64,000 nt of DNA from Minisyncoccota bacterium (GTDB taxonomy: Bacteria; Patescibacteriota; Minisyncoccia; Phycocordibacterales; UBA5272), in the NCBI GenBank assembly GCA_018063165.1, contig JAGOQU010000005.1, positions 1,674-65,673 of the forward strand, given 5' to 3'. The notes beneath the pieces are model-generated. The model did no database searches. It was given only the letters and a program-made list of their open reading frames with translations, and was not told where the DNA came from. Made by a program: the position numbers and the translations under genes. Position 1 is the stretch's first letter; each line of letters starts with the position of its first letter. Below are positions 299 to 63,378 of the stretch, one piece after another.

Positions 299-371
299 GC
301 CCCTATAGCTCAGCTGGTAGAGCATCGGACTCTTAATCCGCAGGTCGTAGGTTCGATCCCTACTGGGGGCA
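299..371 (+). tRNA. tRNA-Lys(CTT)
   Basis: GCCCCTATAGCTCAGCTGGTAGAGCATCGGACTCTTAATCCGCAGGTCGTAGGTTCGATCCCTACTGGGGGCA: acceptor GCCCCTA/TGGGGGC, anticodon loop CTCTTAA, T-loop TTCGATC. Confidence 0.8.
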
Positions 372-380
372 CATACATTA

Positions 381-411
381 AAAAATACAGGTTCTTCCTG
401 TATTTTTTAAT
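381..411 (+). terminator. hairpin + T-run after tRNA-Lys
   Basis: aaaaatacagg-ttcttc-cctgtattttttaa inverted repeat followed by Ts. Confidence 0.6.
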
Positions 412-427
412 GTACAGTGACAACAGA

Positions 428-527
428 GAAAGTGACCTGCGTCACTTTCGTTAGGGATCGAATAGGGTTCGCGAACCTGCTTCGAGCAAAGCGAGGCAGG
501 TTTGTGAACGATCCCTACTGGGGGCAC
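428..527 (+). repeat. tRNA-linked structured element, copy 1
   Basis: Hairpin gaaagtgaCCTGCGtcactttc, core ttagggatcgaatagggttcgcgaacctgcttcgagcaaagcgaggcaggtttgtgaacg, then a copy of the tRNA-Lys 3' end gatccctactgggggca. Followed by its own terminator-like hairpin at 535-568. Confidence 0.6.
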
Positions 528-577
528 TATAATAAAAACATCTCTCATGTATTCGTGAGAGATGTTTTTATTATTAG

Positions 578-687
578 TAACAACAGAACACGACACCTGC
601 GTGTCGTGTGTTAGGGATCGAATAGGGTTCGCGAACATGCTTCGAGCAAAGCAAGGCAGGTTTGTGAACGATCCCTACTGGGAGCAC
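578..687 (+). repeat. tRNA-linked structured element, copy 2 (tandem)
   Basis: Hairpin acacgacaCCTGCGtgtcgtgt: same loop, fully compensatory stem change versus copy 1. Same core with 3 substitutions. Ends gatccctactgggagca. Terminator-like hairpin at 699-735. Confidence 0.6.
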
Positions 688-838
688 AGAAGTAAAGTAA
701 AAATCCACTTGGATTACCGAGTGGATTTATACTTTACATGTAAACCATTTTACTTTTGCACTGTTGTACGTGACGCAGAATAGTACGATAAATTTTTATC
801 TATAAACACTAATCACATATTTCTGATATAATTCTTAC

Positions 839-5854: not shown

Positions 5855-5867
5855 ACAAAAAATAATG

Positions 5868-5900
5868 AACGCAACGTAACACGTTGCGTGATTTATTTTT
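5868..5900 (+). terminator. hairpin + T-run after tRNA-Leu(TAG)
   Basis: gaacgcaacgt-aaca-cgttgcgtga followed by tttatttttt. Confidence 0.6.
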
Positions 5901-6065
5901 TACCCGGGAAAGGACTTGAACTGAGACACTAGCGAAGCCAGTTTTTGAATCAGCAGATTCACGGCTTGGCCGTAAAAACTGTTGTGTCGAAGTCGGGGTC
6001 GCGAAACAATACTTTTACAAATGTATTCATTGTGTAAAAGTATATGTTTGGTGACCAAGTCCTGT
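5901..6065 (+). repeat. divergent tRNA-linked structured element (antisense copy of the tRNA-Leu 3' end plus family core)
   Basis: acccgggaaaggacttgaac is the exact reverse complement of the last 20 nt of tRNA-Leu(TAG). Downstream are ggggtcgcgaaac, a hairpin, then tttggtgaccaagtcct resembling the tRNA T-arm. Confidence 0.45.
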
Positions 6066-7058: not shown

Positions 7059-7904
7059 TTAATTAGAGTTAGTATCCCTTCCAAAAATCATAGCATTGTT
7101 ACCGTTACCATGTACTACATATGACATCACTGTTGGGTTAACACCAACCATAGAAGCATACATAGAATACAATTCTACATCTGACATATTAGGAAAACTT
7201 ATTCTTAATGAACTCATTACAGTTTCCATATCTTTATTTCTTGCAAGCATGTCAAACTGTTCCATTGTTTTTTGGTTTACTTCAACAACTTTTGTAGAAA
7301 ACACTTGTATTTCTAAACCGTAAAAATCACTTTCACCAAACACATCTTCCACGGTTTCGGTAATATCCCAATTCGGATAATTAAGAAGAACTTCTCGAGT
7401 GTTACTATGTATATATCTTGCTATGGCTGTCATACAAAAACCAAGAGTCTGTTCCTGAACTCCTTCTTGTGACATTTTTGAAAGAAGTTGTACATTAACA
7501 GGTTTAGCTCTTCCTGTAGCAAATACCATCATTGAATGCCCTTCCATACTTCTATTTTGTGAAGAAACAGTAAAAGAAAAATGCTGTATTGATACTCTCT
7601 TCCATATACTCCAAAATGGCCGTGGTAAGAAAAGAAAATTACCTTCATTCCACACAACACCATTTTGAGCACCAAAAAATAATTGTATACCTTGTTCGTT
7701 TGGAAGTATTGGTAACTCATAACACCACCTTCCATAAAAACCAAACACTATAACACCTAGTGTCTTTGCCAACATATTTTTATTAATATCAAAAAAAAGA
7801 AATGAATACACCCCTTCTCCAGACATATATACATATGTAATAAAACCAAGAAGCAAACCAAAAATTATAACTAATATATGTGCATCTTGTTTAGAAAGTT
7901 TCAT
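7059..7904 (-). CDS. SPFH/band-7-like membrane protein
   Basis: N-terminal TM helix then a domain with a band-7-like pattern (GEGVYSF..F...LAKTLGV...). Weak call. Confidence 0.4.
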   Translation of the reverse strand: MKLSKQDAHILVIIFGLLLGFITYVYMSGEGVYSFLFFDINKNMLAKTLGVIVFGFYGRWCYELPILPNEQGIQLFFGAQNGVVWNEGNFLFLPRPFWSIWKRVSIQHFSFTVSSQNRSMEGHSMMVFATGRAKPVNVQLLSKMSQEGVQEQTLGFCMTAIARYIHSNTREVLLNYPNWDITETVEDVFGESDFYGLEIQVFSTKVVEVNQKTMEQFDMLARNKDMETVMSSLRISFPNMSDVELYSMYASMVGVNPTVMSYVVHGNGNNAMIFGRDTNSN

Positions 7905-8876: not shown

Positions 8877-9773
8877 ATGGAAAAAACTATACAATGTATA
8901 CCACGTGAAGATTTCGCTACACACCCTCTTCTTGCCAGGCTTCTTGAACTTCACGATGTACCAAAAAAACTCTATATCATTGGAAATATTCCAGACGTTA
9001 CCATTGATCAGTATGGAAGATCAACACCAAGAATTCTCACCGTAGTCGGTTCGCGTAAAAACACACAATACGGTAAACATGTTTTAGAAAAATTACTCTC
9101 ATCTCTTAAAGGTTCCAATACCATAATTCTTTCTGGATTAGCGCTTGGTATTGATGGACTTGCTCATACTACTGCACTTAAACATACAATAACGACGCTC
9201 GCCATTCCAGGTAGCGGTCTTTCAAAAAAAGTATTATACCCCAGCACACATCTTCATCTCGCAGAAGATATTGTTGAATGTGGTGGTGCTCTTATATCAG
9301 AACTAGAACCAAATACATCAGCTGCACCATGGACTTTTCCTGCACGTAATCGTATTATGGCTGCATTATCTGATGCTATCCTTGTTGTAGAAGCAGAAGA
9401 AAAATCAGGTACATTAATTACAGCAAGACAAGCACTAGAACTTGGACGTGACATAGGAGCTATTCCAGGAGAAGTATTTTCTCCAACTTCCGCAGGAACA
9501 AATATGCTTATTCGAGAAGGTGCATACAGTATTACAAATGAAAAAGATCTTTATGAACTTCTACATTTATCTATAGATAAAAAAGATAAAGAAACTCTAA
9601 ATTTAACAGAAGATGAAGAAACAATCATGAATATTCTTTCTGAAACAACAGAAAAAGATACACTTCTTCTATTAAGTGAAATGCCTCTTGAATTATTTTT
9701 AACAACACTTAGTTCTCTTGAAATTAAAGGTTATATAGAAGAAATGTTTGGCGAAGTTAGACGTTTGGTGTAG
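8877..9773 (+). CDS. dprA: DNA processing protein DprA (Smf)
   Basis: VVGSRKNTQYG...LSGLALGIDGLAHTTAL...FPARNRIMAALSDAILVVEAEEKSGTLITARQALELGRDIGAIPG: Rossmann-like DprA core. Confidence 0.9.
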   Translation: MEKTIQCIPREDFATHPLLARLLELHDVPKKLYIIGNIPDVTIDQYGRSTPRILTVVGSRKNTQYGKHVLEKLLSSLKGSNTIILSGLALGIDGLAHTTALKHTITTLAIPGSGLSKKVLYPSTHLHLAEDIVECGGALISELEPNTSAAPWTFPARNRIMAALSDAILVVEAEEKSGTLITARQALELGRDIGAIPGEVFSPTSAGTNMLIREGAYSITNEKDLYELLHLSIDKKDKETLNLTEDEETIMNILSETTEKDTLLLLSEMPLELFLTTLSSLEIKGYIEEMFGEVRRLV

Positions 9774-17019: not shown

Positions 17020-17100
17020 CTTTTTATATAAAGAACAAGATAAAATACATACTACAACAAAAAAGAAAGAAAGACGAATCTATACAGAATTATAATAATT

Positions 17101-17230
17101 CAATCTTTATACCAATAACACCATATTTATCCTGATCTTCTACAGGATAAAATTTACAAATTTCATTAAGAAGAAACTCCTTTGAGTCTCCACCAAAATA
17201 ATTTGAAGGAAAATCAGAAAATAACTTTTC
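17101..17230 (-). pseudogene. 3' fragment of an ASCH-domain gene (degraded duplicate of the 3' end of 19095-19433)
   Basis: ~130 nt near-identical to 19098-19230 (caatctttataccaataacaccatatttatc...aaggaaaatcagaaaa) with no N-terminal part. Confidence 0.7.
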
Positions 17231-17289: not shown

Positions 17290-17400
17290 CGTGTCGGTCA
17301 CGTACGAGACGCAGATTTGAGACTCGGTCACAAAACTACCTCGCTTCGCTCGAAGTAGTTTCGCGACCCCTATTCTCGTCTCACGTACATGACGCAGGTC
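17290..17400 (-). repeat. tRNA-linked structured element family member (degenerate 3' end)
   Basis: Minus-strand read: hairpin gtacatgaCCTGCGtcatgtac, then gagacgagaataggggtcgcgaaactacttcgagcgaagcgaggtagttttgtgaccgagtctc. Confidence 0.5.
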
Positions 17401-17706
17401 ATGTACTTCATACCCATCATGTGTGAAATAAAAGACCTCACTAAATCGTGAGGTCTTTTATTTCACACATGTGCACAAGATGGGTGGCTATCCGAACTTT
17501 TAAAGTGTGCTCTCTCAATCAAAACTTCTATAAAATCATTGGAAAATTCTCTAAATTTACCAAATACCAAACATTGACTACCTATTGTGTTAATGTTATT
17601 ATGTAGAAACTTCTCGAATAATCTTGAAGTATCCGCAGCTCTTTGCAAAACCCTTGAGTTACACAACTTGTTTTAACAAGCCAGTACTCATCACAGGAGA
17701 AATACC

Positions 17707-19047
17707 ATGACGAAAGTAAGCACTTTGATTCGCCCCGCAGAAATTAATGATTTCGAATGGGTGGCAGATCTTATGCACACCTCACTTGAACCATACTATG
17801 GTGGAGACCATAGAGCGCACGCGAAACGTATACTTGACGCCCATATTGATGGTGGCCATGATCGCGTTGGCTTCTTTTCATTTGAACAAAAAATGTTCAT
17901 TCTGGAAGTAGAAAACAAGAGCGCAGGAATTCTCCATCTAGTTGGCAAGAGACAGTCAACATATAAAATCAGTCCTCTAATCCTCGCCCAGGAATTCCAG
18001 GGTATAGGAGGGCTTGGTACAATGCTACTTGATTACGCAGAAAACCACGCACGCGAACATCAAGCACGACAACTCTACTGTACGGTAGCAGAAAAAAATA
18101 ATCTTGCGATGCAATTCTTTTTACGAAAGGGATTCATTCGTGCAGGAAGTTCTGATAGTCATTACAAAAATGATATTACGGAGACAATGCTTTACAAACC
18201 TCTACACGGAGAAAGTAAAATCCTGTCTCTTGACAAGATACATGTTTCTGTTTTACCACTTGAAAAAGTTGATTCGAAGGCAAAAGAAGAAGTTGCAAAG
18301 TTGTTGCTCGAAAAACTGCCAAACTCTTTTGAAGGTATAACCGACGAATGGGTGACAGCACTTTTTAATGGGTATGAGCGCCGAAACACTTCTGATATCA
18401 ACCTTAAATACAAATTAATTTTTGTTGCACTTGATAGTGATGGTTGTGTGATTGGTGTAGCAGGAGCAACACCTAAAAAAGGAAGCCCGATTAAAATCAT
18501 GCCTTTTATTGCAACTAATACTGTTGCTTTTGAAGCACTTTTAATTGATATTCCACATCAGTTAGTGCCATATGGCCATAAACTCTACACCCACATCAAC
18601 CCAACTCCAGAAGAAGTGGTTTCTCTTCAAAGGCTTGGGTGGAAACTTGATGCTGCACTACCGAATGCTTATTACTTGGGTGTTACTACCCAGCAATGGA
18701 GCATAAACATAAAGGAAACTCTTATGAGAACACTACGAATTAAACAAAGGTTTTTTAATCTGATTAAGTCAGGAAAGAAAACTCTCGAGGTTCGTGTTGG
18801 GTATGACACTATTAACCACATTCAAAGTGGTGAACAGATCAACCTAGTAACCCATACTAGCCAACTCAGTGTTCGAGTTAGTGCTATTCGTCGGTATAGC
18901 AACTTCAAAGAAATGCTTTTGAGTGAAAAGTTTTCAAGCATAGCTCCTGATGTTTCATCTTCAGAAGAATTGTTAACATTACTCAGAAACATCTATTCAC
19001 CTCACAAAGAACAGCTTGGTGTTGTGGTATTTGAGATCAAAAAATAA
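17707..19047 (+). CDS. GNAT-GNAT-ASCH fusion protein (tandem acetyltransferase-like domains + C-terminal ASCH domain)
   Basis: First GNAT block QEFQGIGGLGTMLLDYAENHAREHQARQLYCTVAEKNNLAMQFFLRKGF, second GNAT-like region, then C-terminal RIKQRFFNLIKSGKKTLEVRVGYD ASCH beta-barrel signature. Visibly higher G+C than flanking genes. Confidence 0.6.
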   Translation: MTKVSTLIRPAEINDFEWVADLMHTSLEPYYGGDHRAHAKRILDAHIDGGHDRVGFFSFEQKMFILEVENKSAGILHLVGKRQSTYKISPLILAQEFQGIGGLGTMLLDYAENHAREHQARQLYCTVAEKNNLAMQFFLRKGFIRAGSSDSHYKNDITETMLYKPLHGESKILSLDKIHVSVLPLEKVDSKAKEEVAKLLLEKLPNSFEGITDEWVTALFNGYERRNTSDINLKYKLIFVALDSDGCVIGVAGATPKKGSPIKIMPFIATNTVAFEALLIDIPHQLVPYGHKLYTHINPTPEEVVSLQRLGWKLDAALPNAYYLGVTTQQWSINIKETLMRTLRIKQRFFNLIKSGKKTLEVRVGYDTINHIQSGEQINLVTHTSQLSVRVSAIRRYSNFKEMLLSEKFSSIAPDVSSSEELLTLLRNIYSPHKEQLGVVVFEIKK

Positions 19048-19094: not shown

Positions 19095-19433
19095 TTATTC
19101 TAGCTCAATCTTTATACCAATAACACCATATTTATCTTGTTCTTCTTTGGGGTAAAATTTACAAATTTCATCAAGAAGAAACTCCTTTGAGTCTCCACCA
19201 AAATAATCTGAAGGAAAATCAGAAAACATCTTTTCAAATGATGGGTAACGATATAGTGCCGTCACTTTTGTTTTTACCATATTGTCAGGATTTTCATTTT
19301 GAGAGAAAATAACATCGTCGCCAATATTAATTATTGAACGTTTTTCGTCGAAAAGTCGTGACTCAATAATTTTTCTTCCGTTCACAATTTTTTCATAAGG
19401 CTCTTGAGTAAGCTTCATTTGATGTACAGACAT
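19095..19433 (-). CDS. ASCH-domain protein (YqfB-like size)
   Basis: 112 aa. MKLTQEPYEKIVNGRKIIESRLFDEKRSIINIGDDV ASCH signature. Confidence 0.6.
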   Translation of the reverse strand: MSVHQMKLTQEPYEKIVNGRKIIESRLFDEKRSIINIGDDVIFSQNENPDNMVKTKVTALYRYPSFEKMFSDFPSDYFGGDSKEFLLDEICKFYPKEEQDKYGVIGIKIELE

Positions 19434-19498
19434 ATTATATTAGAATTTATTATTATAAATATAAGAATACCATAAATATTTATAATTATTAAGAGCTG

Positions 19499-19601
19499 TG
19501 CTGGAGGAGAGACTTGGTCACAGTTTCTATTCCTCGCAAGCTCGTCATAATAGAAACCGCGACCCCTATTCTCGTCTCCGCAAGCAAAGCAGTTTGCTTG
19601 C
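19499..19601 (-). repeat. tRNA-linked structured element downstream of tRNA-Leu(CAA)
   Basis: Minus-strand read: hairpin gcaagcaaaCTGCtttgcttgc, then ggagacgagaataggggtcgcg, hairpin gtttctatt...aatagaaac, then tgtgaccaagtctctcctccagca mimicking the tRNA-Leu(CAA) 3' end. Confidence 0.55.
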
Positions 19602-19620
19602 TTCCTCATGAAACACAGTG

Positions 19621-19662
19621 ACCACAAAAACACCCAAGTAGCTACTTGGGTGTTTTTGTGGT
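19621..19662. terminator. long hairpin terminator 3' of tRNA-Leu(CAA)
   Basis: accacaaaaacacccaagtagctacttgggtgtttttgtggt perfect inverted repeat. Confidence 0.7.
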
Positions 19663-19666
19663 CATG

Positions 19667-19748
19667 TGCCGGAGGAGAGACTCGAACTCTCACACCTTGC
19701 GATACACGATTTTGAGTCGTGCGCGTCTACCATTCCGCCACTCCGGCA
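19667..19748 (-). tRNA. tRNA-Leu(CAA)
   Basis: Reverse complement GCCGGAGTGGCGGAATGGTAGACGCGCACGACTCAAAATCGTG + variable arm TATCGCAAGGTGTG + AGAGTTCGAGTCTCTCCTCCGGCA. Confidence 0.8.
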
Positions 19749-48333: not shown

Positions 48334-49638
48334 ATGGCTAAAAAAATACAACAAAAACTAACATGGTCACTCACTACACGCAAAGTAAATGACCTCACAA
48401 AAAACGGATACAATCCGAGAAAGATAAGCGAGAATGAAAAAAGAGATTTAGAAAACTCTGTTAAAGAGTTTGGTACGGTTGTACCTGTAATTCTAAACAT
48501 CGGTAAAAGAAATAACATTATTATTGGTGGTGAGCAAAGAGTTAAAGTCTATGCTGACCTCGGTATAGAAAGTATTGAGTGCATGACTCCTTCTCGGGAA
48601 CTTACTCTTACAGAAGAAAAGGAATTAAATCTAAGGCTCAATAAAAATACTGGATCTTGGGATGAAAACCTCTTGAAAGATTTTGATATAGACATGCTTT
48701 TAGATGTTGGTTTTGGAGATGAGGAATTACAAAGCATGTTTGATGATGTAAACATGATCGAAGATGATTATGATATAGAAAAAGCAGTAAAAGAAACTAT
48801 TACTCCCAAAGTAAAACTTGGCGAGATTTGGGAACTTGGAAAACATAGGCTACTCGTGGGAGATTCAACTGATCTTGCTTCTGTACAAAAACTAATGGAT
48901 GGGAATTTAGCAGATATCATTTACTGTGACCCGCCATATAATATTGGACTCGACTACTCTAAGGGTGTGGGAAATACAGAAAAGTATGGAGGGTCATATT
49001 CTGCAAAAGATGATTCAAAGACCAAAAAAGAATATGAAGCTTTCATAGATACAAGTATGGAAGTAGCCAAGTCTATTGCTAAAAAAGATAGCCACTTTTT
49101 CTATTGGGGAGATTCTTCATTTATTGGAATGCTCCAATCTCTCTACCTAAAACATAAAGTAGATAGTAAAAGGGTTTGCATGTGGATTAAGAATAATCAA
49201 AACCCAACTCATAAAATTGCATTCAACAAAGTCTATGAGCCTTGTGTATATGGCACTCTTGGTAAACCCTATCTTAATTCTTCGATGAATAACACCAATG
49301 AAATACTTAATCAAGAAGTAACTACCGGCAATCAAGTTCATGATGAAATACTCGACATGATAGATATATGGATTGAAAAAAGAGACAGTGCTCAAACTTA
49401 TCAACATCCGACACAGAAGCCAGTTACTCTAAACGAAAAGCCATTCAAGAGATGCAGTGCTCCACTTCATGTTATTTATAGTGGTTTTGGTGGTAGTGGT
49501 TCTGATCTCATTGCCTGCGAGCAACTAAATAGAGTTTGGCGTGGGGTCGAAAAAGATTTGGTATTTGCTACCGTGATTATAGATAGATGGGAAAAGTTTA
49601 CAGGACTTAAAGCAATGAGAATATATGAAAGTAAATAA
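48334..49638 (+). CDS. ParB-like nuclease domain fused to DNA methyltransferase (N6-adenine/N4-cytosine, DPPY type)
   Basis: N-terminal ParBc-like segment (KISENEKRDLENSVKEFGTVVPVILNIG...IIGGEQRV), then IIYCDPPYNIGLDY and C-terminal SGFGGSGSDLIACEQLNR AdoMet motif. Confidence 0.8.
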   Translation: MAKKIQQKLTWSLTTRKVNDLTKNGYNPRKISENEKRDLENSVKEFGTVVPVILNIGKRNNIIIGGEQRVKVYADLGIESIECMTPSRELTLTEEKELNLRLNKNTGSWDENLLKDFDIDMLLDVGFGDEELQSMFDDVNMIEDDYDIEKAVKETITPKVKLGEIWELGKHRLLVGDSTDLASVQKLMDGNLADIIYCDPPYNIGLDYSKGVGNTEKYGGSYSAKDDSKTKKEYEAFIDTSMEVAKSIAKKDSHFFYWGDSSFIGMLQSLYLKHKVDSKRVCMWIKNNQNPTHKIAFNKVYEPCVYGTLGKPYLNSSMNNTNEILNQEVTTGNQVHDEILDMIDIWIEKRDSAQTYQHPTQKPVTLNEKPFKRCSAPLHVIYSGFGGSGSDLIACEQLNRVWRGVEKDLVFATVIIDRWEKFTGLKAMRIYESK

Positions 49639-50377
49639 AGGAGATATATTCACAATTGGTAATCACACTGTGGGGTGTGGCGACTCTACGGATAGAGAGT
49701 TTGTCAGTAAAGTTATTGGGAAAAATAAGATACGAGCAATAGTTACAGACCCTCCATATGGTGTTGCGTATGTAGAAAATAAAAAAGACTTTTTAAAACT
49801 TGGAGTGAAAGATGAAAAGAAAATTGCAGGAGATCATATACAATCGGACTCTGAATATACTGACTTTACTCAAAAGTATTTAGGAGCAGTGGTTCCGTAT
49901 CTAGAGGATTATAATGCTTGCTATATATTCAATGCTGACCTCATGTATCCGTCACTTAGAGTTGGTATGACTAACAGGGGATTCTATTATAGTCAGATGC
50001 TCATTTGGGTTAAAAATCAACCAGTCATGAGTCGTAAAGATTATTTATCTCAATATGAACTCATTGCATATGGATGGTTTGGAAAGCATAAAACAGAAAG
50101 GTCTAAGTCAAAGAACGTCATATACCACCCAAGACCAAATAAATCTAAACTGCATCCAACTCAAAAACCGATAGGTTTACTTCGTAGACTTATCCCAGAC
50201 AATACTGTTATTGGTGACATGGTCTATGATCCATTTCTAGGAAGTGGTTCAACCGCTATTGCTTGTGAACACTTAGGTCGAAAATGTATTGGTATAGAGC
50301 TCGACGTTAAGTATGTAGAAATAATACTACAAAGACTTGAAAAGCTTACTGGCGAAAAAGCCATAAAGAGTAATTAA
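49625..50377 (+). CDS. DNA methyltransferase (orphan, DPPY type)
   Basis: IVTDPPYGVAYV, HPTQKPIGLLRRLI, DPFLGSGSTAIACEHLGRKCIGIELD. Confidence 0.8.
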   Translation: MKVNKGDIFTIGNHTVGCGDSTDREFVSKVIGKNKIRAIVTDPPYGVAYVENKKDFLKLGVKDEKKIAGDHIQSDSEYTDFTQKYLGAVVPYLEDYNACYIFNADLMYPSLRVGMTNRGFYYSQMLIWVKNQPVMSRKDYLSQYELIAYGWFGKHKTERSKSKNVIYHPRPNKSKLHPTQKPIGLLRRLIPDNTVIGDMVYDPFLGSGSTAIACEHLGRKCIGIELDVKYVEIILQRLEKLTGEKAIKSN

Positions 50378-51948: not shown

Positions 51949-52067
51949 AAGGACTAATGTAGCCCCCAAAGTATTGACTTAATATACAAAGTATGCTATG
52001 ATGTATTAAGCTGTAAACTACAGCTACTGACCAAGCAGATTCTTGGTGTTCTTTTAAAAAGGAAAAG

Positions 52068-52925
52068 ATGATGACTGAAAAGATCACGTCGAATCAACGT
52101 AAACAAATCGTTCGATTCGTGGAGGATGGCATTGATGCCGTGAACCTTCAAAAAGACGGCGCACAGCGCCTTATCGAAAACGGAGGAGAATTCCAAAGCG
52201 AGCTGAAAAAGCTTGTTGAACGTTTCTCCATTACCAACCAGTACGCGGACGAAGAAGTGAAATCCAGCTACGGCTACCTGTCGGGCTACACGCCCAAGGG
52301 TATCACCGAGCAGACCAACTTACTCCGCGCCCTGTTCCCTGGTATCGGCTACGCCAACGAAAAGCTTGCCGAAGCTGGTCTGCCCGAAAACGCCGAAGGA
52401 TGGTTCGCCATTCCGCGGTGGGAAAAGGTTGCCCCGACTTATGGCGAAGCGGTGCAGAAGGTGCTCGATCTGATCAAGCAAACCAGAAACGGTGCGTTCT
52501 ACAACTACCGTGAAGGTCAACTTGGTCCGAACCAGCTCCGTCAGTCCGCGAAAGCAAAGTCAATGTTCCAAATGCTCGGTGGCGAGCAAAAAGATCAGGA
52601 CATTCTGGTGGTACCTGCCCAATTCGGTATCCGTCATCGCGGTCGCTCGGTTCGCCGTGCCCGCGCGCTAATGAACGCAAACGAATGCGGTCTGGGTGCA
52701 TTTGCCATCGGCATCATGCTCCTGACTCATCCTGAGCGTCTTCAGCACTTTGATGATCTCTGGATTGACTCCGCTGGTGACGAGTTTGCTCCGCATGCCG
52801 ATGGTGACTTCTCGAGGTCTCCGTACTTCAGGTTCTTTGACGACGAGGTCGAGTTCGACACCAACGATGTTTTCATTGCTTACGCCTACTATGGTTCGGC
52901 TTCGGTGTGTCTTCCGCAAGGTTGA
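52068..52925 (+). CDS. DGR target protein (variable region at C-terminus)
   Basis: 285-aa ORF, markedly GC-rich versus flanks. Last ~45 codons form the VR matching the downstream TR with adenine-specific mismatches. Confidence 0.7.
   Translation: MMTEKITSNQRKQIVRFVEDGIDAVNLQKDGAQRLIENGGEFQSELKKLVERFSITNQYADEEVKSSYGYLSGYTPKGITEQTNLLRALFPGIGYANEKLAEAGLPENAEGWFAIPRWEKVAPTYGEAVQKVLDLIKQTRNGAFYNYREGQLGPNQLRQSAKAKSMFQMLGGEQKDQDILVVPAQFGIRHRGRSVRRARALMNANECGLGAFAIGIMLLTHPERLQHFDDLWIDSAGDEFAPHADGDFSRSPYFRFFDDEVEFDTNDVFIAYAYYGSASVCLPQG
52784..52921 (+). repeat. DGR variable repeat (VR)
   Basis: Aligned by hand to 53289-53426 at a constant offset of 505 bp. Confidence 0.7.
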
Positions 52926-52984
52926 TACTTGTTCTTTGGGATCTTGAGTCTTTTGATTTTTTGATCCTTGAATCCTTGAGTGGG

Positions 52985-53012
52985 TTTGCGAAAGCAAACC
53001 CACTTTTTTTAT
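52985..53012 (+). terminator. terminator after DGR target gene
   Basis: gtgggtttgc-gaaa-gcaaacccac followed by tttttttatt. Confidence 0.7.
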
Positions 53013-53288
53013 TTGCCGAAGGCAATTTTTGTATTTTTATGGTAAAATAAGTTTGAGTCTAGGTTAGTGTATAGTAGTTTACGGATTACTATCACCGAAC
53101 TCTTTCTCCTATGAGAAATCACAATCAGCATCACAAAGACCAAGGTTTCTGTGACAGTGTTGTTGCTCTAGAGATACTGCTTACTATTTTCTAAGACAAA
53201 CAAGTAATTGTGTTGTTGGATTAAATACAGAATCGTGATTTATGTGCAATATCATACTTCGTGGTTTGTGGTCTGGATGGAAAATAGT

Positions 53289-53426
53289 AAAAGCTCCGAA
53301 TGCCGATGGTGACTTCTCGAAGTCTCCGTACTTCAAGTTCAATGACGACAAGGTCAAGTTCGACACCAACGATGTTGACAATGCTAACGACAACTATGGT
53401 TCGGCTTCGGTGTGTCTTCCGAAGTA
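53289..53426 (+). repeat. DGR template repeat (TR)
   Basis: Non-coding copy of the VR. 13 of 14 mismatches are A in this copy versus C/G/T in the VR. Followed by hairpin ggtatcc-atatcg-gatacc at 53440-53468. Confidence 0.7.
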
Positions 53427-53472
53427 TCAATTAAGCACAAAAGGTATCCATATCGGATACCTTTTGCTTTAT

Positions 53473-53817
53473 TTACTTTTGGAACTTTATCCACCCACCA
53501 AGCATACGACCAATTTCATCAATGATTCCTTGGAGAAGTGTGTACTTCTTTAGATCGAGACTTCTACTTTCTTTCATAAGACGAATAAAAAACCTTATGA
53601 TATTAAGTTTTACACTCGTCTTTTCTAGAAGAATTATTTTTCTTTCTTTTGAAACATAACTTGCTTCAAGAACTAATTCAAGGATATCTATAATTATATT
53701 TTCTGTACGCTCGTAAACAGAGAATCTGTCTTGTTTTGGAACCAGATTTCTGTACTCATGAAATGTTTTGTACAACTCATGAATCTTACGAAGTATTGGC
53801 ACATCATTATCATTCAT
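53473..53817 (-). CDS. avd: Avd-like accessory variability determinant (four-helix-bundle family)
   Basis: 114-aa helical ORF ending IDEIGRMLGGWIKFQK. Lies between TR and RT. Opposite strand to the RT is atypical. Confidence 0.5.
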   Translation of the reverse strand: MNDNDVPILRKIHELYKTFHEYRNLVPKQDRFSVYERTENIIIDILELVLEASYVSKERKIILLEKTSVKLNIIRFFIRLMKESRSLDLKKYTLLQGIIDEIGRMLGGWIKFQK

Positions 53818-54873
53818 ATGAGAATATATACTAATTTATTTAATAAACTTGTTACTCCAGAAAACCTATTTTCTGCATGGGAGGATTTTCGACGTGATAA
53901 AAAAAAGAAAGTAGATGTACTTATTTTTGAGAAAAATCTCGAGCAAGAAATATTCTCTATTCACAGAGAATTGACTTCTGACACTTACAAGCACAGTGGC
54001 TATACTTCTTTTTATCTTTCAGATCCGAAACGTCGACATATACACAAAGCCTTAGTTCGTGACCGAGTACTTCATCATGCGATTATGGGTATTTTGTATC
54101 CTTTGTACGACAAAACCTTTATTCATAATTCTTTTTCTTGTCGTGTTGGGAAAGGAACTCATAAAGGTGTTGATGCACTACGATCCATGCTTTACAAAGC
54201 AAGTAAAAATAATACAAGAAATGTGTATATTTTAAAGTGCGATATAGAGAAGTTTTTTGATTCTATTTCTCACGAGATCTTGCTTGACGCTCTTCACTCA
54301 CGAATCAAAGATCAAAAACTTATGGACTTACTCACTGAAGTAATCGGAAGCTTTTCGAGTTATAAGTCTAATCTTTTCGGATTGTGCGGTGTACCTATTG
54401 GTAATTTAACCTCTCAATTATTCGCTAATGTTTACATGGATATTTTTGATCAGTTCATGAAACATGAACTTAAAGTAAAATATTATGCACGGTATACCGA
54501 TGATTTTGTAATAGTTAGTGAGAATAAAGAATATCTAATAGACTTATTACCCAAAATACAATTGTTTTTAAATGAGAAGTTAAAGTTACAGACACATCCC
54601 AAGAAAATTATCCTAACAAAGTTCGCACTAGGCATTGATTATCTTGGATATGTTTTGTTCCCACACTTCACTTTAGTTCGTAAACTCACTCAAAAATGTG
54701 CTTTTAGAAAAATAAACGAAAAGATATCTTTGTGCAAGCAACAAGAGATTTCAAAAGATAAAGTACATGCAACCTTAATGTCTTATCTTGGTGTTTTATC
54801 TCATGCAGATACTTATAAAGTATCTAATAAATTAAAGAATGATTATTTCTTTAATATGAGTAACATTGACTAA
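53818..54873 (+). CDS. DGR reverse transcriptase
   Basis: Start inferred at MRIYTNLFNKLVTPENLFSAWEDF. RT motifs include GVPIGNLTSQLFANVYM (DGR-type [I/L]GxxxSQ) and YARYTDDFVIV (YxDD). No maturase/endonuclease domain. Confidence 0.8.
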   Translation: MRIYTNLFNKLVTPENLFSAWEDFRRDKKKKVDVLIFEKNLEQEIFSIHRELTSDTYKHSGYTSFYLSDPKRRHIHKALVRDRVLHHAIMGILYPLYDKTFIHNSFSCRVGKGTHKGVDALRSMLYKASKNNTRNVYILKCDIEKFFDSISHEILLDALHSRIKDQKLMDLLTEVIGSFSSYKSNLFGLCGVPIGNLTSQLFANVYMDIFDQFMKHELKVKYYARYTDDFVIVSENKEYLIDLLPKIQLFLNEKLKLQTHPKKIILTKFALGIDYLGYVLFPHFTLVRKLTQKCAFRKINEKISLCKQQEISKDKVHATLMSYLGVLSHADTYKVSNKLKNDYFFNMSNID

Positions 54874-59283: not shown

Positions 59284-60612
59284 ATGAAAATAGATGCACC
59301 AAAAGGATATGAAGTACCTATAACACTTCAAACAAAAGAAGTTAAAGCAAGATATTGTTTGTATGCAAGAAAATCAACAGAGTCAGAAGAAAGACAAGTA
59401 CTTTCAATTGATTCGCAAATTAAAGAAATGCTCGAGCTTGCAGAAAGAGAAGGTCTTGAAATAGTTGCTATGAAGCGAGAGTCCCACTCAGCAAAAGAAC
59501 AAGGACAGCGTCCTGTATTTAATGAAATAGTCGATGAAATCAAAGCTAAGAAATATAATGCAATACTCACATGGGCACCAGATCGTATTAGTAGAAATGC
59601 GGGAGATCTCGGAAAGATAGTAGACCTCATGGATGCGGGACTGCTTCATGAAATACGCACCTATGGGCAAAAGTTTTCAAACAACCCTAATGAGAAGTTC
59701 TTGCTGATGATACTGGGCTCACAAGCAAAGCTAGAAAATGATAACAGAGGTGTGAATGTGAAGCGTGGACTTCGCACAAGAGCTGAGATGGGACTATGGG
59801 CAGGTACAGCACCACTCGGATATTTAAATCAAAGACATATGGATAGAAAGTGCCAAGTAGTCATAGATCCTGATAGAGCTCCTGTAGTAAAGAAAATGTT
59901 TGAGAAAGTAGCATACGAAAAATGGTCGGGAAGAAAGGTGTACAATTGGCTTCGTTTTGAAGCCAATTTTTATACGAGAGGCAATAAGCCTCTTACACTA
60001 AGCGGTGTCTACAGAGTGCTCACTCACAGCTTTTATTATGGAGTTTTTGAAAGACCTAAAAATAGCGGCAACTGGTATCAAGGTAAACATGAGCCGATTA
60101 TAACAAAAGAGTTATTTGATCAAGTACAAGCACAACTGAAGCGAGATAATATACAGAGAGAAAATAAAGAATTTGCTTTCACTAAACTATTTACTTGTGG
60201 ATATTGTGGTAGCGGTATATCGGCAGAAGAAAAGTGGAAAGATTTAAAAGATGGTACACATGCAAAATACATATACTACTCCTGTAGTAGGGCGAGGGAT
60301 AGAAACTGTAAGAATAAATATATTAGAGAAGAAGAATTGATTGGGGAACTACTCAAAATGCTAGACAAGGTAGATATTAACGAGCTTGGCATGAGACAAA
60401 AGCTCGAGGAAGAAATAGCAAGATTTAATATATTCCAAAGATCAGTGTTACAAACGACAGTAAAGTCAGACAAAGATCATGTCACTGATATTCGTAACTA
60501 TGCGAAGTATATTCTTAAGGAAGGTACAGTGATGGAAAAGCGTGAGTTACTTGCTAATTTAAGGAGCAGGATTGTGTATAAGGATAAGGAGTTAAAATTA
60601 AACAATTGCTAA
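59284..60612 (+). CDS. large serine recombinase
   Basis: N-terminal resolvase domain with catalytic Ser in YARKSTESEERQVLSIDSQ, recombinase domain, C-terminal zinc ribbon CGYCGSGISAEE...YYSCS. 442 aa. Confidence 0.9.
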   Translation: MKIDAPKGYEVPITLQTKEVKARYCLYARKSTESEERQVLSIDSQIKEMLELAEREGLEIVAMKRESHSAKEQGQRPVFNEIVDEIKAKKYNAILTWAPDRISRNAGDLGKIVDLMDAGLLHEIRTYGQKFSNNPNEKFLLMILGSQAKLENDNRGVNVKRGLRTRAEMGLWAGTAPLGYLNQRHMDRKCQVVIDPDRAPVVKKMFEKVAYEKWSGRKVYNWLRFEANFYTRGNKPLTLSGVYRVLTHSFYYGVFERPKNSGNWYQGKHEPIITKELFDQVQAQLKRDNIQRENKEFAFTKLFTCGYCGSGISAEEKWKDLKDGTHAKYIYYSCSRARDRNCKNKYIREEELIGELLKMLDKVDINELGMRQKLEEEIARFNIFQRSVLQTTVKSDKDHVTDIRNYAKYILKEGTVMEKRELLANLRSRIVYKDKELKLNNC

Positions 60613-61418
60613 TCAAAAACTTTAGACAACATAGCGCTAAAATCAGGGTTTGTTTTTGGATTTGGTATAGCAACTATCCCATAACCAATAGAACTACCAT
60701 CTTTTTTACTTCTTCTAACTTTATTTCTTAGATATTGTGAGTAAATGTCTGTGGAGGTTTTATATTCTCTTAGTGTCCCACTTATTGCACCGATAATAAA
60801 ATCTGCAATCTGGATACCAATATTTAAATTTGAAAATTCAATAAAGAGGTTATCAACAATGAGATTGTAATCTTTTATAAAGGAATCACTGTTAATTATT
60901 TCTTTGTAAACTTCTTTTTTAATTTTATCATCCTTAGATGAATTTTCGTTTTCATGGACAAGAATTGTTACAAAATGATTTTCCTGCCCAGCGAACTGAC
61001 ACCTCTGCATAAGATTTTGGAGTTGCATTTTTACAAAAGAATCTTGTCTTTTAATTACTTTTATTAAATCGCTTTTTCTTGAGACATTAGTAACTATTTT
61101 TATATCAAAATCAGAAATAATTTTAAAAAATGAATCTAGATACTCATGCAATTCTTTAATGCTAAATTTATCAAGGTAAAGAATGTCCTCATTAAGAGCT
61201 TTATTTTTATTTTTTAAAAAAATTGCAGATGAAATATGAGACCACTTTATTTCTTTTGTTTCTTTAAGAAAATCAAGATTAAGTTTCTTTATTTTCTTAT
61301 TTAGTTTTAAATAGTCATGAATATCAATCATGTAACCTCCTCTCAGTAACCACTCGTGATCATTGTTAAGTGTTCCTTGTTCATCTATAAAGAAAAATTT
61401 GGTTGTGTTATTTATCAT
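60609..61418 (-). CDS. DUF3800-like protein
   Basis: N-terminal FFIDEQGTL (DUF3800 starts with a similar I/YxDESG). 269 aa. Confidence 0.45.
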   Translation of the reverse strand: MINNTTKFFFIDEQGTLNNDHEWLLRGGYMIDIHDYLKLNKKIKKLNLDFLKETKEIKWSHISSAIFLKNKNKALNEDILYLDKFSIKELHEYLDSFFKIISDFDIKIVTNVSRKSDLIKVIKRQDSFVKMQLQNLMQRCQFAGQENHFVTILVHENENSSKDDKIKKEVYKEIINSDSFIKDYNLIVDNLFIEFSNLNIGIQIADFIIGAISGTLREYKTSTDIYSQYLRNKVRRSKKDGSSIGYGIVAIPNPKTNPDFSAMLSKVFD

Positions 61419-61542
61419 AAAGACATTTTACTCTTTCTAAAACAAAACACACGAAGCGTCGTGTGTTTTGCGATAACTTATGTACTCGGATCGCTACCAT
61501 CTCGTGAGAATATGGGAACACTCCGATACTAAGTTGTCAAGG

Positions 61543-61630
61543 CGGAGACGATGAGATTCGAACTCATGAGGGTATTACTACCCTGCCTCGTTAGCAGTGA
61601 GGTGCCTTCGACCAGCTCAGCCACGTCTCC
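61543..61630 (-). tRNA. tRNA-Ser(GCT)
   Basis: Reverse complement GGAGACGTGGCTGAGCTGGTCGAAGGCACCTCACTGCTAACGAGG + long variable arm CAGGGTAGTAATACCCTCATG + AGTTCGAATCTCATCGTCTCC. Confidence 0.75.
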
Positions 61631-63143: not shown

Positions 63144-63215
63144 GGCCTCATCGTCTATCGGCTAGGACACAGGCTTCTCATGCCTGGAAGCGGAGTTCGA
63201 TTCTCCGTGAGGTCA
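63144..63215 (+). tRNA. tRNA-Glu(CTC)
   Basis: GGCCTCATCGTCTATCGGCTAGGACACAGGCTTCTCATGCCTGGAAGCGGAGTTCGATTCTCCGTGAGGTCA: anticodon stem CAGGC/GCCTG, loop TTCTCAT. Confidence 0.75.
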
Positions 63216-63225
63216 CACATCCACA

Positions 63226-63258: not shown

Positions 63259-63276
63259 GACTGTAATCAAAAGAAG

Positions 63277-63378
63277 TAAGTGGCCTACGTCACTTACGGG
63301 AGAATCGAATACGATGTCGCGAAACCAACTCGAGGAGTTTATGACGAGGAGTTCCATATCCGTTCTCCGTAGGGTCAC
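63277..63378 (+). repeat. tRNA-linked structured element downstream of tRNA-Glu
   Basis: Hairpin gtaagtgGCCTACGtcacttac, then acgggagaatcgaatacgatgtcgcgaaaccaactcgaggagtttatgacgaggagtt, then ccatatccgttctccgtagggtcaca mimicking the tRNA-Glu 3' end gattctccgtgaggtcaca. Confidence 0.55.

Follow-up and report, generated by a model that had tools for sequence, protein, structure and literature searches.

Hairpin units copying the tRNA 3' end behind tRNA genes of a Minisyncoccota bacterium: candidate miniature insertion cassettes

Genomic islands, tycheposons and cis-mobilizable elements (CIMEs) that integrate serially at tRNA genes leave arrays in which direct repeats of the 3' part of the tRNA bound the elements, newer insertions push older ones outward, distal copies decay, and members range from cargo-free to cargo-bearing. 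CIME-type elements of streptococci are att-bounded and carry no integrase, and a direct repeat starting in the tRNA T-loop is said to figure as an integration signature in the sublocation classes drawn up by Williams in 2002. At the 3' end of rlmH, staphylococcal cassette chromosome (SCC) elements form Ccr-driven tandem arrays, some members of which have no recombinase of their own. Serial integration at tRNA genes has been reported for the tycheposon islands of Prochlorococcus (bioRxiv 10.1101/2020.12.28.424599). Here, we analyse a family of hairpin units located behind tRNA genes in a 64,000-nucleotide stretch, hereafter the window, from the A+T-rich genome (window GC ca. 0.33) of a Minisyncoccota bacterium (GCA_018063165.1, contig JAGOQU010000005.1, positions 1,674 to 65,673). 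A first-pass annotation, made from the sequence alone, had interpreted two of them downstream of tRNA-Lys as independent small RNA genes with tRNA-like 3' ends. With a probability of roughly 0.5, we read the units instead as non-autonomous miniature insertion cassettes anchored in the T-loop and 3' end of tRNA genes, whose hairpin scaffold would work in a folded, single-stranded form.

Several features of att arrays are found in the units, including direct repeats of the tRNA end at tRNA-Lys, tRNA-Leu(CAA) and tRNA-Glu and in relatives, and the presence or absence of exactly one element in a closely related contig (L001). In contrast to the tRNA-associated scars described above, these elements can be as small as ca. 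155 bp, no integrase lies nearby in the regions scanned, an inverted att core is interwoven with two conserved hairpins, and a single scaffold serves at least six tRNA species.

Folded single strands that rebuild a duplex recombination site in a stem are known from the attC sites of integrons and from the attP(+) site of CTXphi. In attC, the structure is conserved and the sequence free, mismatches are strand-asymmetric, and cassette arrays may enclose single genes, some cassettes being devoid of any open reading frame (ORF). The units resemble these sites in being imperfect palindromes arranged in arrays, in which structure rather than sequence is conserved. However, they have no RYYYAAC/GTTRRRY core sites, integron integrase or attI: GTTAGGG is restricted to some of the Lys units, its position being taken by GTCGGGA, GTAAGGA or GGGAGAA in the units of the Leu, Cys and Glu loci. 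Identity with integron attC was thus rejected for failing the core-site definition. The units further differ from both systems in being anchored on a tRNA gene, in having a stem that reproduces 19 nucleotides (nt) of the target itself, and in a hairpin (V, see below) that interrupts one strand.

With their small size (110-160 bp), non-coding nature, self-complementarity and abundance (20 copies in ca. 143 kb), the units are also reminiscent of MITEs (miniature inverted-repeat transposable elements) and of repetitive extragenic palindrome doublets forming hairpins (REPINs), with which they share terminal inverted repeats (b'a' against a b in the notation used below, perfect in the related locus L011), flanking direct repeats and presence/absence polymorphism. 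Unlike the situation in MITEs, the apparent duplication measures 19 nt, is always the adjacent tRNA end, equals the inverted repeats and varies with the locus; the only sites used are tRNA 3' ends, and no cognate transposase occurs among the window ORFs scanned. As in SCC composite islands, repeat-bounded arrays lie at the 3' end of conserved genes, and Ccr-like recombinases are found beside tRNA genes here, but the geometry of the units does not fit a contiguous serine-recombinase site. Among RNAs, the tRNA-like domain of transfer-messenger RNA, viral tRNA-like structures, mitochondrial t-elements and YrlA likewise stack an acceptor-like helix on a T-arm-like one and have the same 3' end as a tRNA. 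In contrast, the units have no D-loop mimic and no T-loop mimic, the latter because the T-loop bases are paired, their acceptor helix is often not maintained, and they have no match in Rfam. The units share features with tRNA scars, folded single-stranded DNA sites, MITEs or REPINs and SCC elements, and fail a defining feature of each. No published description of this tRNA-flanking architecture was found in a limited literature search, and the family of tRNA-end-mimicking hairpin cassettes of these tiny Nomurabacteria-like bacteria has apparently not been described so far.

Anatomy of the array behind tRNA-Lys

The tRNA-Lys(CTT) gene is followed, on the same strand, by two modules with a period of 155 and 160 bp (Table 1). 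An identical array is present in GCA_017992935.1, which is probably the same genome. Each module opens with a terminator-shaped hairpin (T) and continues with a unit that ends in a direct copy of the last 19 nt of the tRNA. This repeat (CGATCCCTACTGGGGGCAC) occurs three times, as compared with 0.01 copies expected from shuffled sequences, and only the last copy has a mismatch. Module 1 extends over exactly 155 bp (373-527) and module 2 over positions 529-687. Across the family, the design of a unit reads b' (complement of tRNA nt 65-74), AG, hairpin V, (C)GT, a' (complement of nt 54-64), TAGG, hairpin H and a b (nt 56-74), where a b is the direct tRNA copy, which starts at position 56 in the T-loop and runs to the base after the discriminator, and b'/a' is its reverse complement split by V.

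Table 1. Positions of the units and of their component parts in the window (fold energies with z scores relative to shuffled sequences)
Feature	Position	Strand	Evidence or remark
tRNA-Lys(CTT)	299-372	+	ARAGORN and Rfam
Last 19 nt of tRNA-Lys, T-loop C56 to one base past the discriminator	354-372	+	Repeated in each module
T1, 18-bp perfect A-tract/hairpin/T-tract of intrinsic-terminator shape; opens module 1	374-414	+	-21.5 kcal/mol, z = -7.9
b' remnant of unit 1 (GTGACAACAG), 7/10 match to expectation	417-426	+	Comparison with L011, L012
Hairpin V of unit 1, GAAAGTGAC-CTGC-GTCACTTTC	428-449	+	Folding; family covariation
a' of unit 1 (TAGGGATCGAA, reverse complement of tRNA nt 54-64) and conserved TAGG	452-466	+	11/11 match
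Hairpin H of unit 1, 18-bp stem (467-484 with 492-509), loop AGCAAAG	467-509	+	Folding, inverted repeat
Direct copy 1 of the tRNA-Lys 3' end (a b); closes module 1	509-527	+	Repeat search
T2, terminator-shaped hairpin; opens module 2	529-574	+	-27.2 kcal/mol, z = -10.6
b' remnant of unit 2 (GTAACAACAG)	577-586	+	Alignment
Hairpin V of unit 2, ACACGACAC-CTGC-GTGTCGTGT	588-609	+	Folding; family covariation
a' of unit 2 and TAGG	612-626	+	Alignment
Hairpin H of unit 2, two pair-breaking substitutions (637 A, 653 A)	627-669	+	Folding
Direct copy 2 of the tRNA-Lys 3' end, one mismatch (G683A)	669-687	+	Repeat search
T3, terminator-shaped hairpin	692-737	+	-27.0 kcal/mol, z = -9.9
Variant behind tRNA-Leu(TAG)	5857-6064	+	Weak R1 match on H
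Second Leu(CAA)-type unit, preceded by T (17418-17475)	17308-17417	-	R1 86.2 bits
Unit downstream of tRNA-Leu(CAA) (19666-19747, -) and T (19613-19665)	19498-19612	-	R1 70.5 bits, E = 1e-17
Decayed unit downstream of tRNA-Glu (63144-63216) and T	63265-63378	+	R1 28.5 bits, E about 1e-5

All features reported by the first-pass annotation are present at, or within 1-2 nt of, the positions it gave, including the copy of the tRNA 3' end in each unit and the hairpin with T-run that follows each of them. All three flanking hairpins have a perfect A-tract/hairpin/T-tract form, and T3 is probably the displaced original terminator of tRNA-Lys. The claim of fully compensated V stems around a constant loop was also borne out: the stem measures 9 bp (8 plus a C-G closing pair) around the loop CTGC, and the two units differ at five of the nine stem positions, all of them compensated. 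Their common core does differ at only three positions (477/637 C>A, 493/653 G>A and 523/683 G>A), two of which disrupt pairs in unit 2, and position 653 is still G in L001, a 99% relative. Other claims stood in part. The sequence GGTTCGCGAACC, described as a palindrome, is present and is really the left foot of the 18-bp hairpin H, with three G.U pairs on the + strand; relatives carry GGGGTCGCGAAA at this place and the palindrome is not kept, the conserved H foot being GKTCGCG/TGTGRMC with two G.T wobbles. The motif CAACAGA noted before both units is a decayed reverse complement of the acceptor 3' strand of the tRNA, and corresponds to b' with three C>A changes, since two related loci (L011 and L012) show an intact GTGCCCCCAG. 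As a result, the acceptor-closing 5' arm of both Lys units of the window has three A.G mismatches. Unit 2 bears three disruptive changes. The free tRNA-like 3' end proposed earlier is a property of these decayed copies only: the L011 unit is a closed three-way junction (-64.6 kcal/mol, z = -7.9).

The remaining pairing involves TAGGGATC (452-459) with GATCCCTA (510-517), and leaves GAATAGG as a bulge between a' and H, in which GAATA is invariant across 14 units. In silico, both units are far more stable than shuffled sequences (-54.4 kcal/mol, z = -6.9 for unit 1; -42.9 kcal/mol, z = -4.0 for unit 2), with z scores of the hairpins ranging from -4 to -10.6. The tRNA-sense strand is more stable than the opposite strand by 8-13 kcal/mol in the two Lys units of the window, and by 8-14 kcal/mol when L011 is included. 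A minus-strand reading, with V followed by TCTGTTGTT as a terminator, was rejected, as this strand folds worse by the same 8-14 kcal/mol and the conserved G.T pairs become A.C mismatches.

The two window units are nearly identical in b', a', H and a b, and have unrelated V stems and T hairpins. Their H hairpins are nearer to each other than to orthologues, which together with the shared arms suggests patchy local gene conversion or a recent shared source. This contrast is that of a mosaic, in which a constrained or homogenised scaffold is combined with free, still-paired stems, and not that of drift within one young duplicate. Across the family, V and T are likewise the parts with the least sequence constraint, the scaffold being conserved in sequence.

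The unit family in related genomes

Scanning metagenomes for the stem TAGGGATCG...CGATCCCTACTGG identified the loci L011 and L012, each consisting of a tRNA-Lys, a T hairpin and one Lys unit that begins with GTGCCCCCAG, the exact reverse complement of CTGGGGGCAC in the tRNA. Units with the same scaffold were also found in L012 behind tRNA-Leu(TAA) and, as a variant, behind tRNA-Cys, with arms made from those tRNAs. The DUF2238 gene neighbouring L012 gave access to further loci, with units behind tRNA-Lys, tRNA-Cys, tRNA-Leu(TAA) and tRNA-Leu(TAG) in three more genomes. Tracing the peptidase gene located downstream of the window array into relatives did not lead to the tRNA-Lys locus, the 99% relative excepted, because synteny is not conserved, and scanning genome contigs with the window-specific variant AATAGGGTTCGCGAACNTGC returned a single chance match, in a SusD-like ORF of a Bacteroidetes metagenome-assembled genome.

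A covariance model (R1) built from an alignment of 14 units detected 20 units at E<1e-8 in ca. 143 kb, the decayed Glu unit and the Leu(TAG) variant being additional. With the upstream context of one unit (L002) cut off by the start of its contig, all matches of known context are downstream of tRNA-Lys, tRNA-Cys, tRNA-Leu(TAA), tRNA-Leu(TAG), tRNA-Leu(CAA) or tRNA-Glu. Over the 20 units, 95.4% of the cells expected to pair do so, as compared with 74.4% in shuffled sequences and 37-45% when partners are slid, and compensatory double changes occur in 22 of the 29 pairs. The stems are thus under a pairing constraint, with compensatory rather than random changes, as had been predicted from the two Lys units. 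Pairing is complete in the V helix (100% of cells across 18 units, with covariation at seven of the nine pairs), where a single G.U was counted in 162 cells. The T hairpins are equally regular, with an A-rich left arm and a T-rich right arm on the tRNA strand in 23/23 cases and 410 Watson-Crick pairs against 7 G.T out of 417. A terminator-shaped hairpin in the right orientation follows nearly every full unit examined; a simple terminator scanner missed these hairpins because the T-run sits inside an extended stem. Together with the flanking arms, b-T-b' makes perfect palindromes of up to ca. 30 bp per arm. On the tRNA-sense strand, 43 G.T cells were counted against 7 A.C cells, 30 of the 43 coming from two conserved columns in the H foot. 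Constant loops on free stems favour a folded strand over a protein-binding site in duplex form. Judged by their near-pure Watson-Crick composition, the V and T stems look more like palindromic DNA than like typical RNA helices.

The arms are specific to the adjacent tRNA. Agreement between a' and its own tRNA is complete (11/11) in 10 of 17 units, against 5-8/11 for other tRNAs, except for Cys against Leu(TAA) at 8-10. The b' arm is perfect in three units, one position off in two more and decayed in the rest. The top of hairpin H falls into about five discrete sequence types, each recurring behind different tRNAs and in different genomes: the Leu(TAG) unit of L026 shares its type with the Lys unit of L012, and the Lys unit of L026 shares its type with the Cys unit of L022 and the Leu(TAG) unit of L020. 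Conversely, orthologous Lys units carry differing types. Distal copies are mutated or truncated.

Evidence for insertion and competing explanations

Evidence of a discrete element comes from L001, a Logan contig from SRR12762274 (a run in which both alleles are present) whose downstream peptidase gene is 99% identical to that of the window. In this contig, the tRNA (GGTCGTAGGTT) is joined directly to CGATCC...GCAC, followed by T2 and unit 2; the rest is nearly identical, and what is missing is exactly the 155 bp of module 1, with boundaries within the repeat. In L022, an acceptor variant of tRNA-Lys (A71) is also found in the direct copy of the unit, which implies exchange between the two. The arrays can hold genes. 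In the window, an ASCH gene (19095-19430, -) and a GNAT-ASCH gene (17707-19047, +) lie between two Leu(CAA) units; a 100-aa ORF is found between Leu(TAG) units in L026, and in L020 tRNA-Leu(TAG) is separated from T plus unit by 4.2 kb that include a large serine recombinase. The position of this cargo is always between a b and T, and T always abuts b'. As a side observation, the ASCH 3' end is duplicated beyond the second Leu(CAA) unit (17090-17222 versus 19095-19216, -), an arrangement which suggests that an incoming ASCH-bearing cassette displaced and truncated a resident copy. A G+C-rich ORF of 308 aa without Pfam match, located right after the Lys unit of the A+T-rich contig L011 (372-1298, -), is probably foreign cargo.

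The sequences themselves show how the modules are built, that their structure is under constraint, that a shared scaffold bears tRNA-specific arms, and that there are direct repeats, an exact one-module indel and arrays with cargo. Direct repeats of 19 nt that start in the T-loop fit the classical signature of integration in tRNA genes, and constant loops, free stems and the G.T foot suit a folded strand as substrate better than they suit a binding site in duplex form. Each module of ca. 155 bp would be a miniature non-coding cassette on the 3' end of a tRNA gene. In the folded strand, a'/a and b'/b would rebuild a duplex mimicking the end of the tRNA gene, capped by H and T and branched by V. 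Circularisation via the 19-nt repeat would join ...GGGGGCAC to the module's own T, and the resulting rod (T loop, T stem, b/b', branch with V, a/a', GAATAGG bulge, H stem and H loop) would include every base. A recombinase acting in trans would exchange strands within the 19-nt identity, leaving the tRNA with an intact 3' end and a fresh terminator T, and pushing the old 3' end downstream. Repeated events would generate tandem arrays, in which genes between a b and T are carried along or trapped as cargo and distal copies decay afterwards, as may have happened to unit 2 of the window. We infer that a folded form, either single-stranded DNA or RNA, would be the active substrate and that movement would involve site-specific recombination rather than homologous exchange; the identity of the enzyme, and a route by which arms come to match a new tRNA, are presumed parts of this scheme.

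Several observations weigh against these cassettes. A simple deletion between the 19-nt repeats could account for the 155-bp indel and would look no different from excision. No tyrosine recombinase was detected among ca. 36 window ORFs scanned or in the Pfam lists of ca. 100 kb of related loci, and no recombinase is consistently linked to the units in the window or in related loci. Viral contigs scanned with several unit parts, including degenerate gapped scaffold patterns, gave 0 matches, blastn of one unit against phage and plasmid collections gave none, and these searches revealed no free or circular copies. The two serine recombinases observed beside tRNA genes, one in the window and one in L020, are only 28% identical, and the arrangement of sequences in L020 looks like that of an element inserted beside the unit and not defined by it. 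The matching of a' and b' to each new tRNA is left unexplained, and covariation, the two conserved G.U pairs of the tRNA-sense strand and the terminators would suit an RNA product equally well.

The main rival explanation, which we consider unlikely, is indeed that the units are genes or processed domains of a structured RNA, a three-way-junction mimic of the neighbouring tRNA. Here, b'/b would be an acceptor-like helix and a'/a with H an extended 'T-arm' helix, a protein would recognise the CUGC loop, the GAAUAGG bulge and the G.U foot, and mobility would be secondary or RNA-mediated. Such an RNA would account for the 95.4% pairing with compensatory changes at 22/29 pairs, for the better folding of the tRNA-sense strand and its 43 G.T against 7 A.C cells, for the perfect closed junction of L011 and for the correctly oriented terminator shapes, as well as for loops and a bulge that are conserved on varying stems. 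Yet 30 of these 43 G.T cells stem from two columns and the V and T stems are nearly devoid of G.U; the decay of b' in most copies means that the acceptor-like helix is not maintained, and distal copies are truncated, with pair-breaking changes. A consensus promoter scan gave no match upstream of either Lys unit, with no conserved -35 evident by eye, and the units begin immediately behind a strong terminator. In the window and four related loci, only tRNAs pass the gathering threshold of Rfam 15. Permissive searches over the units yielded TD-2 at 28.9 bits (cut-off 48.7), an L10 leader (E = 8) and a microRNA precursor (E = 0.21), and the TD-2 match, which covers T1 and V on the minus strand, was rejected as noise. 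An RNA alone would also leave the direct repeats, the cargo and the one-module indel unaccounted for.

For these reasons, the independent small RNA genes of the first-pass annotation are only partly supported. That annotation had opposed them to duplicated att sites, a contrast at odds with the direct repeats, the one-module indel, the cargo, the spread over six tRNA species and the absence of promoter matches; moreover, the 19-nt tRNA-end repeats bounding each module are flanking duplications of the kind it had itself set against RNA genes. The small RNA genes are disfavoured because arms match whichever tRNA adjoins, arrays hold cargo and units start after a terminator.

Alternatively, the units might be passive scars, that is, right-end (attR-side) arms of larger serially integrated elements that have since been deleted, their hairpins being leftover terminators or binding sites and the similarity between neighbours being kept by gene conversion. 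Arrays of partial tRNA copies beside tRNA genes are a known outcome of serial integration, as in tycheposons (bioRxiv 10.1101/2020.12.28.424599), distal copies do decay, and the two window units, with common H and arms and differing V and T, are suggestive of patchy gene conversion. We nevertheless find this quite doubtful: a minimal module recurs at many loci with the same tight architecture and no spare sequence, its structure is kept through many compensatory changes, and the perfect b-T-b' palindromes would not be recreated by independent deletions. Nor was a parental element with the scaffold beside an integrase found in the viral, phage and plasmid searches.

It is improbable that the units are attachment sites for Ccr-like large serine recombinases, with a b and b'a' as dyad half-sites of ca. 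20 bp each. Half-site length and dyad symmetry fit such sites, as does the formation by SCC elements of tandem arrays with recombinase-less members, and recombinases do occur beside tRNA-Ser in the window and abutting tRNA-Leu(TAG) in L020. However, the half-sites are 40-50 bp apart (T) or split by H and make no contiguous site, the junctions in L020 (immediately after gggCAC and ctGCAC) place the element between b and T, and no unit is found at tRNA-Ser in the window. Junction geometry and the 28% identity thus do not support a large serine recombinase as the responsible enzyme. The recombinases beside tRNA genes probably belong to distinct integrated elements, by which tRNA ends are used as well. 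Finally, replication template switching at terminator hairpins, by which palindrome extension would copy the tRNA end inverted and leave by-products with neither function nor mobility, fits the position of b' against the right arm of T and of a' before H, each inverted segment continuing a hairpin, and a DNA-level symmetrisation would explain the near-absence of G.T in V and T, but this is highly improbable, as it accounts neither for the homology of the scaffold across six tRNA species, with loops and linkers conserved, nor for the shared discrete H types and the downstream direct copy.

More distant analogies were also examined. The topology of a unit (P1, small hairpin, long hairpin) resembles that of a retron msr/msd, but retrons were rejected, since the units are multi-copy, stand behind tRNAs and lie 35-53 kb from the only reverse transcriptase in the window. 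TIGR arrays, found in Parcubacteria, have box C/D-like motifs, dual spacers in loops and an adjacent Tas gene (PMC12045711). The units do not qualify, with a V loop of only 4 nt and no box C/D-like motifs; no Tas-like (Nop-domain) match was reported for the window ORFs scanned, although no Tas-specific search was made. A primer-binding-site analogy fails as b' complements the ...CAC of the gene and not the mature CCA end, and a k-turn analogy fails on defining features.

Returning to insertion cassettes, a broader and more tentative proposal, which we hold to be unlikely, is that they form a retargetable, tRNA-anchored cassette-capture system of bacteria of the candidate phyla radiation (CPR), integron-like or bridge-RNA-like and not previously described. 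A self-folding site mimicking the target would be made from both strands of the last ca. 20 nt of the tRNA on a common scaffold, and one recombinase, or an RNA- or single-stranded-DNA-guided enzyme, would insert or swap terminator-only and gene-bearing cassettes at many tRNA T-loops. CPR/Patescibacteria have tiny genomes with few recognised mobile elements, and their gene exchange is poorly understood. Most tRNA genes examined in this lineage bear at least one of the candidate cassettes, some with cargo, so that genes may be gained and lost mainly at these landing pads. The design itself is unusual, with arms both identical and complementary to the adjacent tRNA on one scaffold. Should the folded form serve as substrate, the element would itself encode, in rewritable form, the target of a site-specific system, of interest as a mechanism and as a tool; if the units were RNAs, they would represent a new class of tRNA-mimicking RNA. 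In practice, units break assemblies, several contigs beginning or ending inside them, and they could be mis-annotated as partial tRNAs.

Further units, variants and neighbouring genes

The two units first described are both real, and three more, together with the Leu(TAG) variant, were found in the window. With filters off, R1 recovered five units, namely two Lys, two Leu(CAA) on the minus strand and the decayed Glu unit. The Leu(TAG) variant is composed of T, an uninterrupted inverted tRNA 3' end (5900-5918), a 75-nt insert, H (5996-6056) and a direct copy that is truncated. Of the six complete tRNA genes of the window, four are occupied, and no direct repeats of the tRNA-Ser and tRNA-Cys ends occur in it. 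The window starts inside tRNA-Leu(TAA) (1-60, -), directly downstream of tRNA-Cys (126-202, -); the gap between these two genes contains a terminator-like hairpin only, and relatives have units there.

Other arrangements were observed around tRNA genes of the relatives. A second, larger scaffold, with two inner hairpins (...GAGCGGTCGGCGAG...ACTTGTCGAAGA), lies between a' and a b behind tRNA-Leu(TAA) and tRNA-Cys (L020 10784-10934 and 9040-9217, -; L022 7940-8125), where detection by R1 is weak or nil. A tiny hairpin motif, YGATTAGTAAATCR then CGYCGRGAGRCGCT, is nested in the V loop, at the junction of TAGG with H and in the H loop of one unit (L022 12983-13173) and recurs near tRNA-Cys (L012 ca. 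95-110, -; L022 ca. 7590, 7965 and 8330; L020 ca. 9905); this motif resembles a further invasive element of still smaller size. The 5' end of tRNA-Cys is duplicated, together with bases upstream of it, at a distance of ca. 115-220 nt in the upstream direction, and a decayed 5' half of tRNA-Cys separates the two copies (L020 9281-9300 versus 9395-9418; L022 7497-7512 versus 7716-7730), so that rearrangement in this clade extends to the 5' sides of tRNA genes.

At the far end of the window, a Ccr-like large serine recombinase gene (59284-60612, +) and a gene for a DUF3800 protein (60609-61418, -) are located beside tRNA-Ser (61541-61630, -). Upstream, an ORF with a reverse-transcriptase domain (53731-54873, +) is associated with a GC-rich patch (52000-54000, GC 0.43 versus 0.33 for the genome). 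Its best named match is a group II intron reverse transcriptase/maturase, at 134 bits against a cut-off of 300, and it resembles reverse transcriptases of the defence types UG17 and Drt3a; Rfam revealed no group II intron RNA. A DNA methyltransferase fused to a ParB-N domain, followed by a second, type II-like methyltransferase, is encoded at 48334-50377 (+). Methyltransferases, reverse transcriptase and recombinase may form an island of ca. 14 kb that ends at tRNA-Ser.

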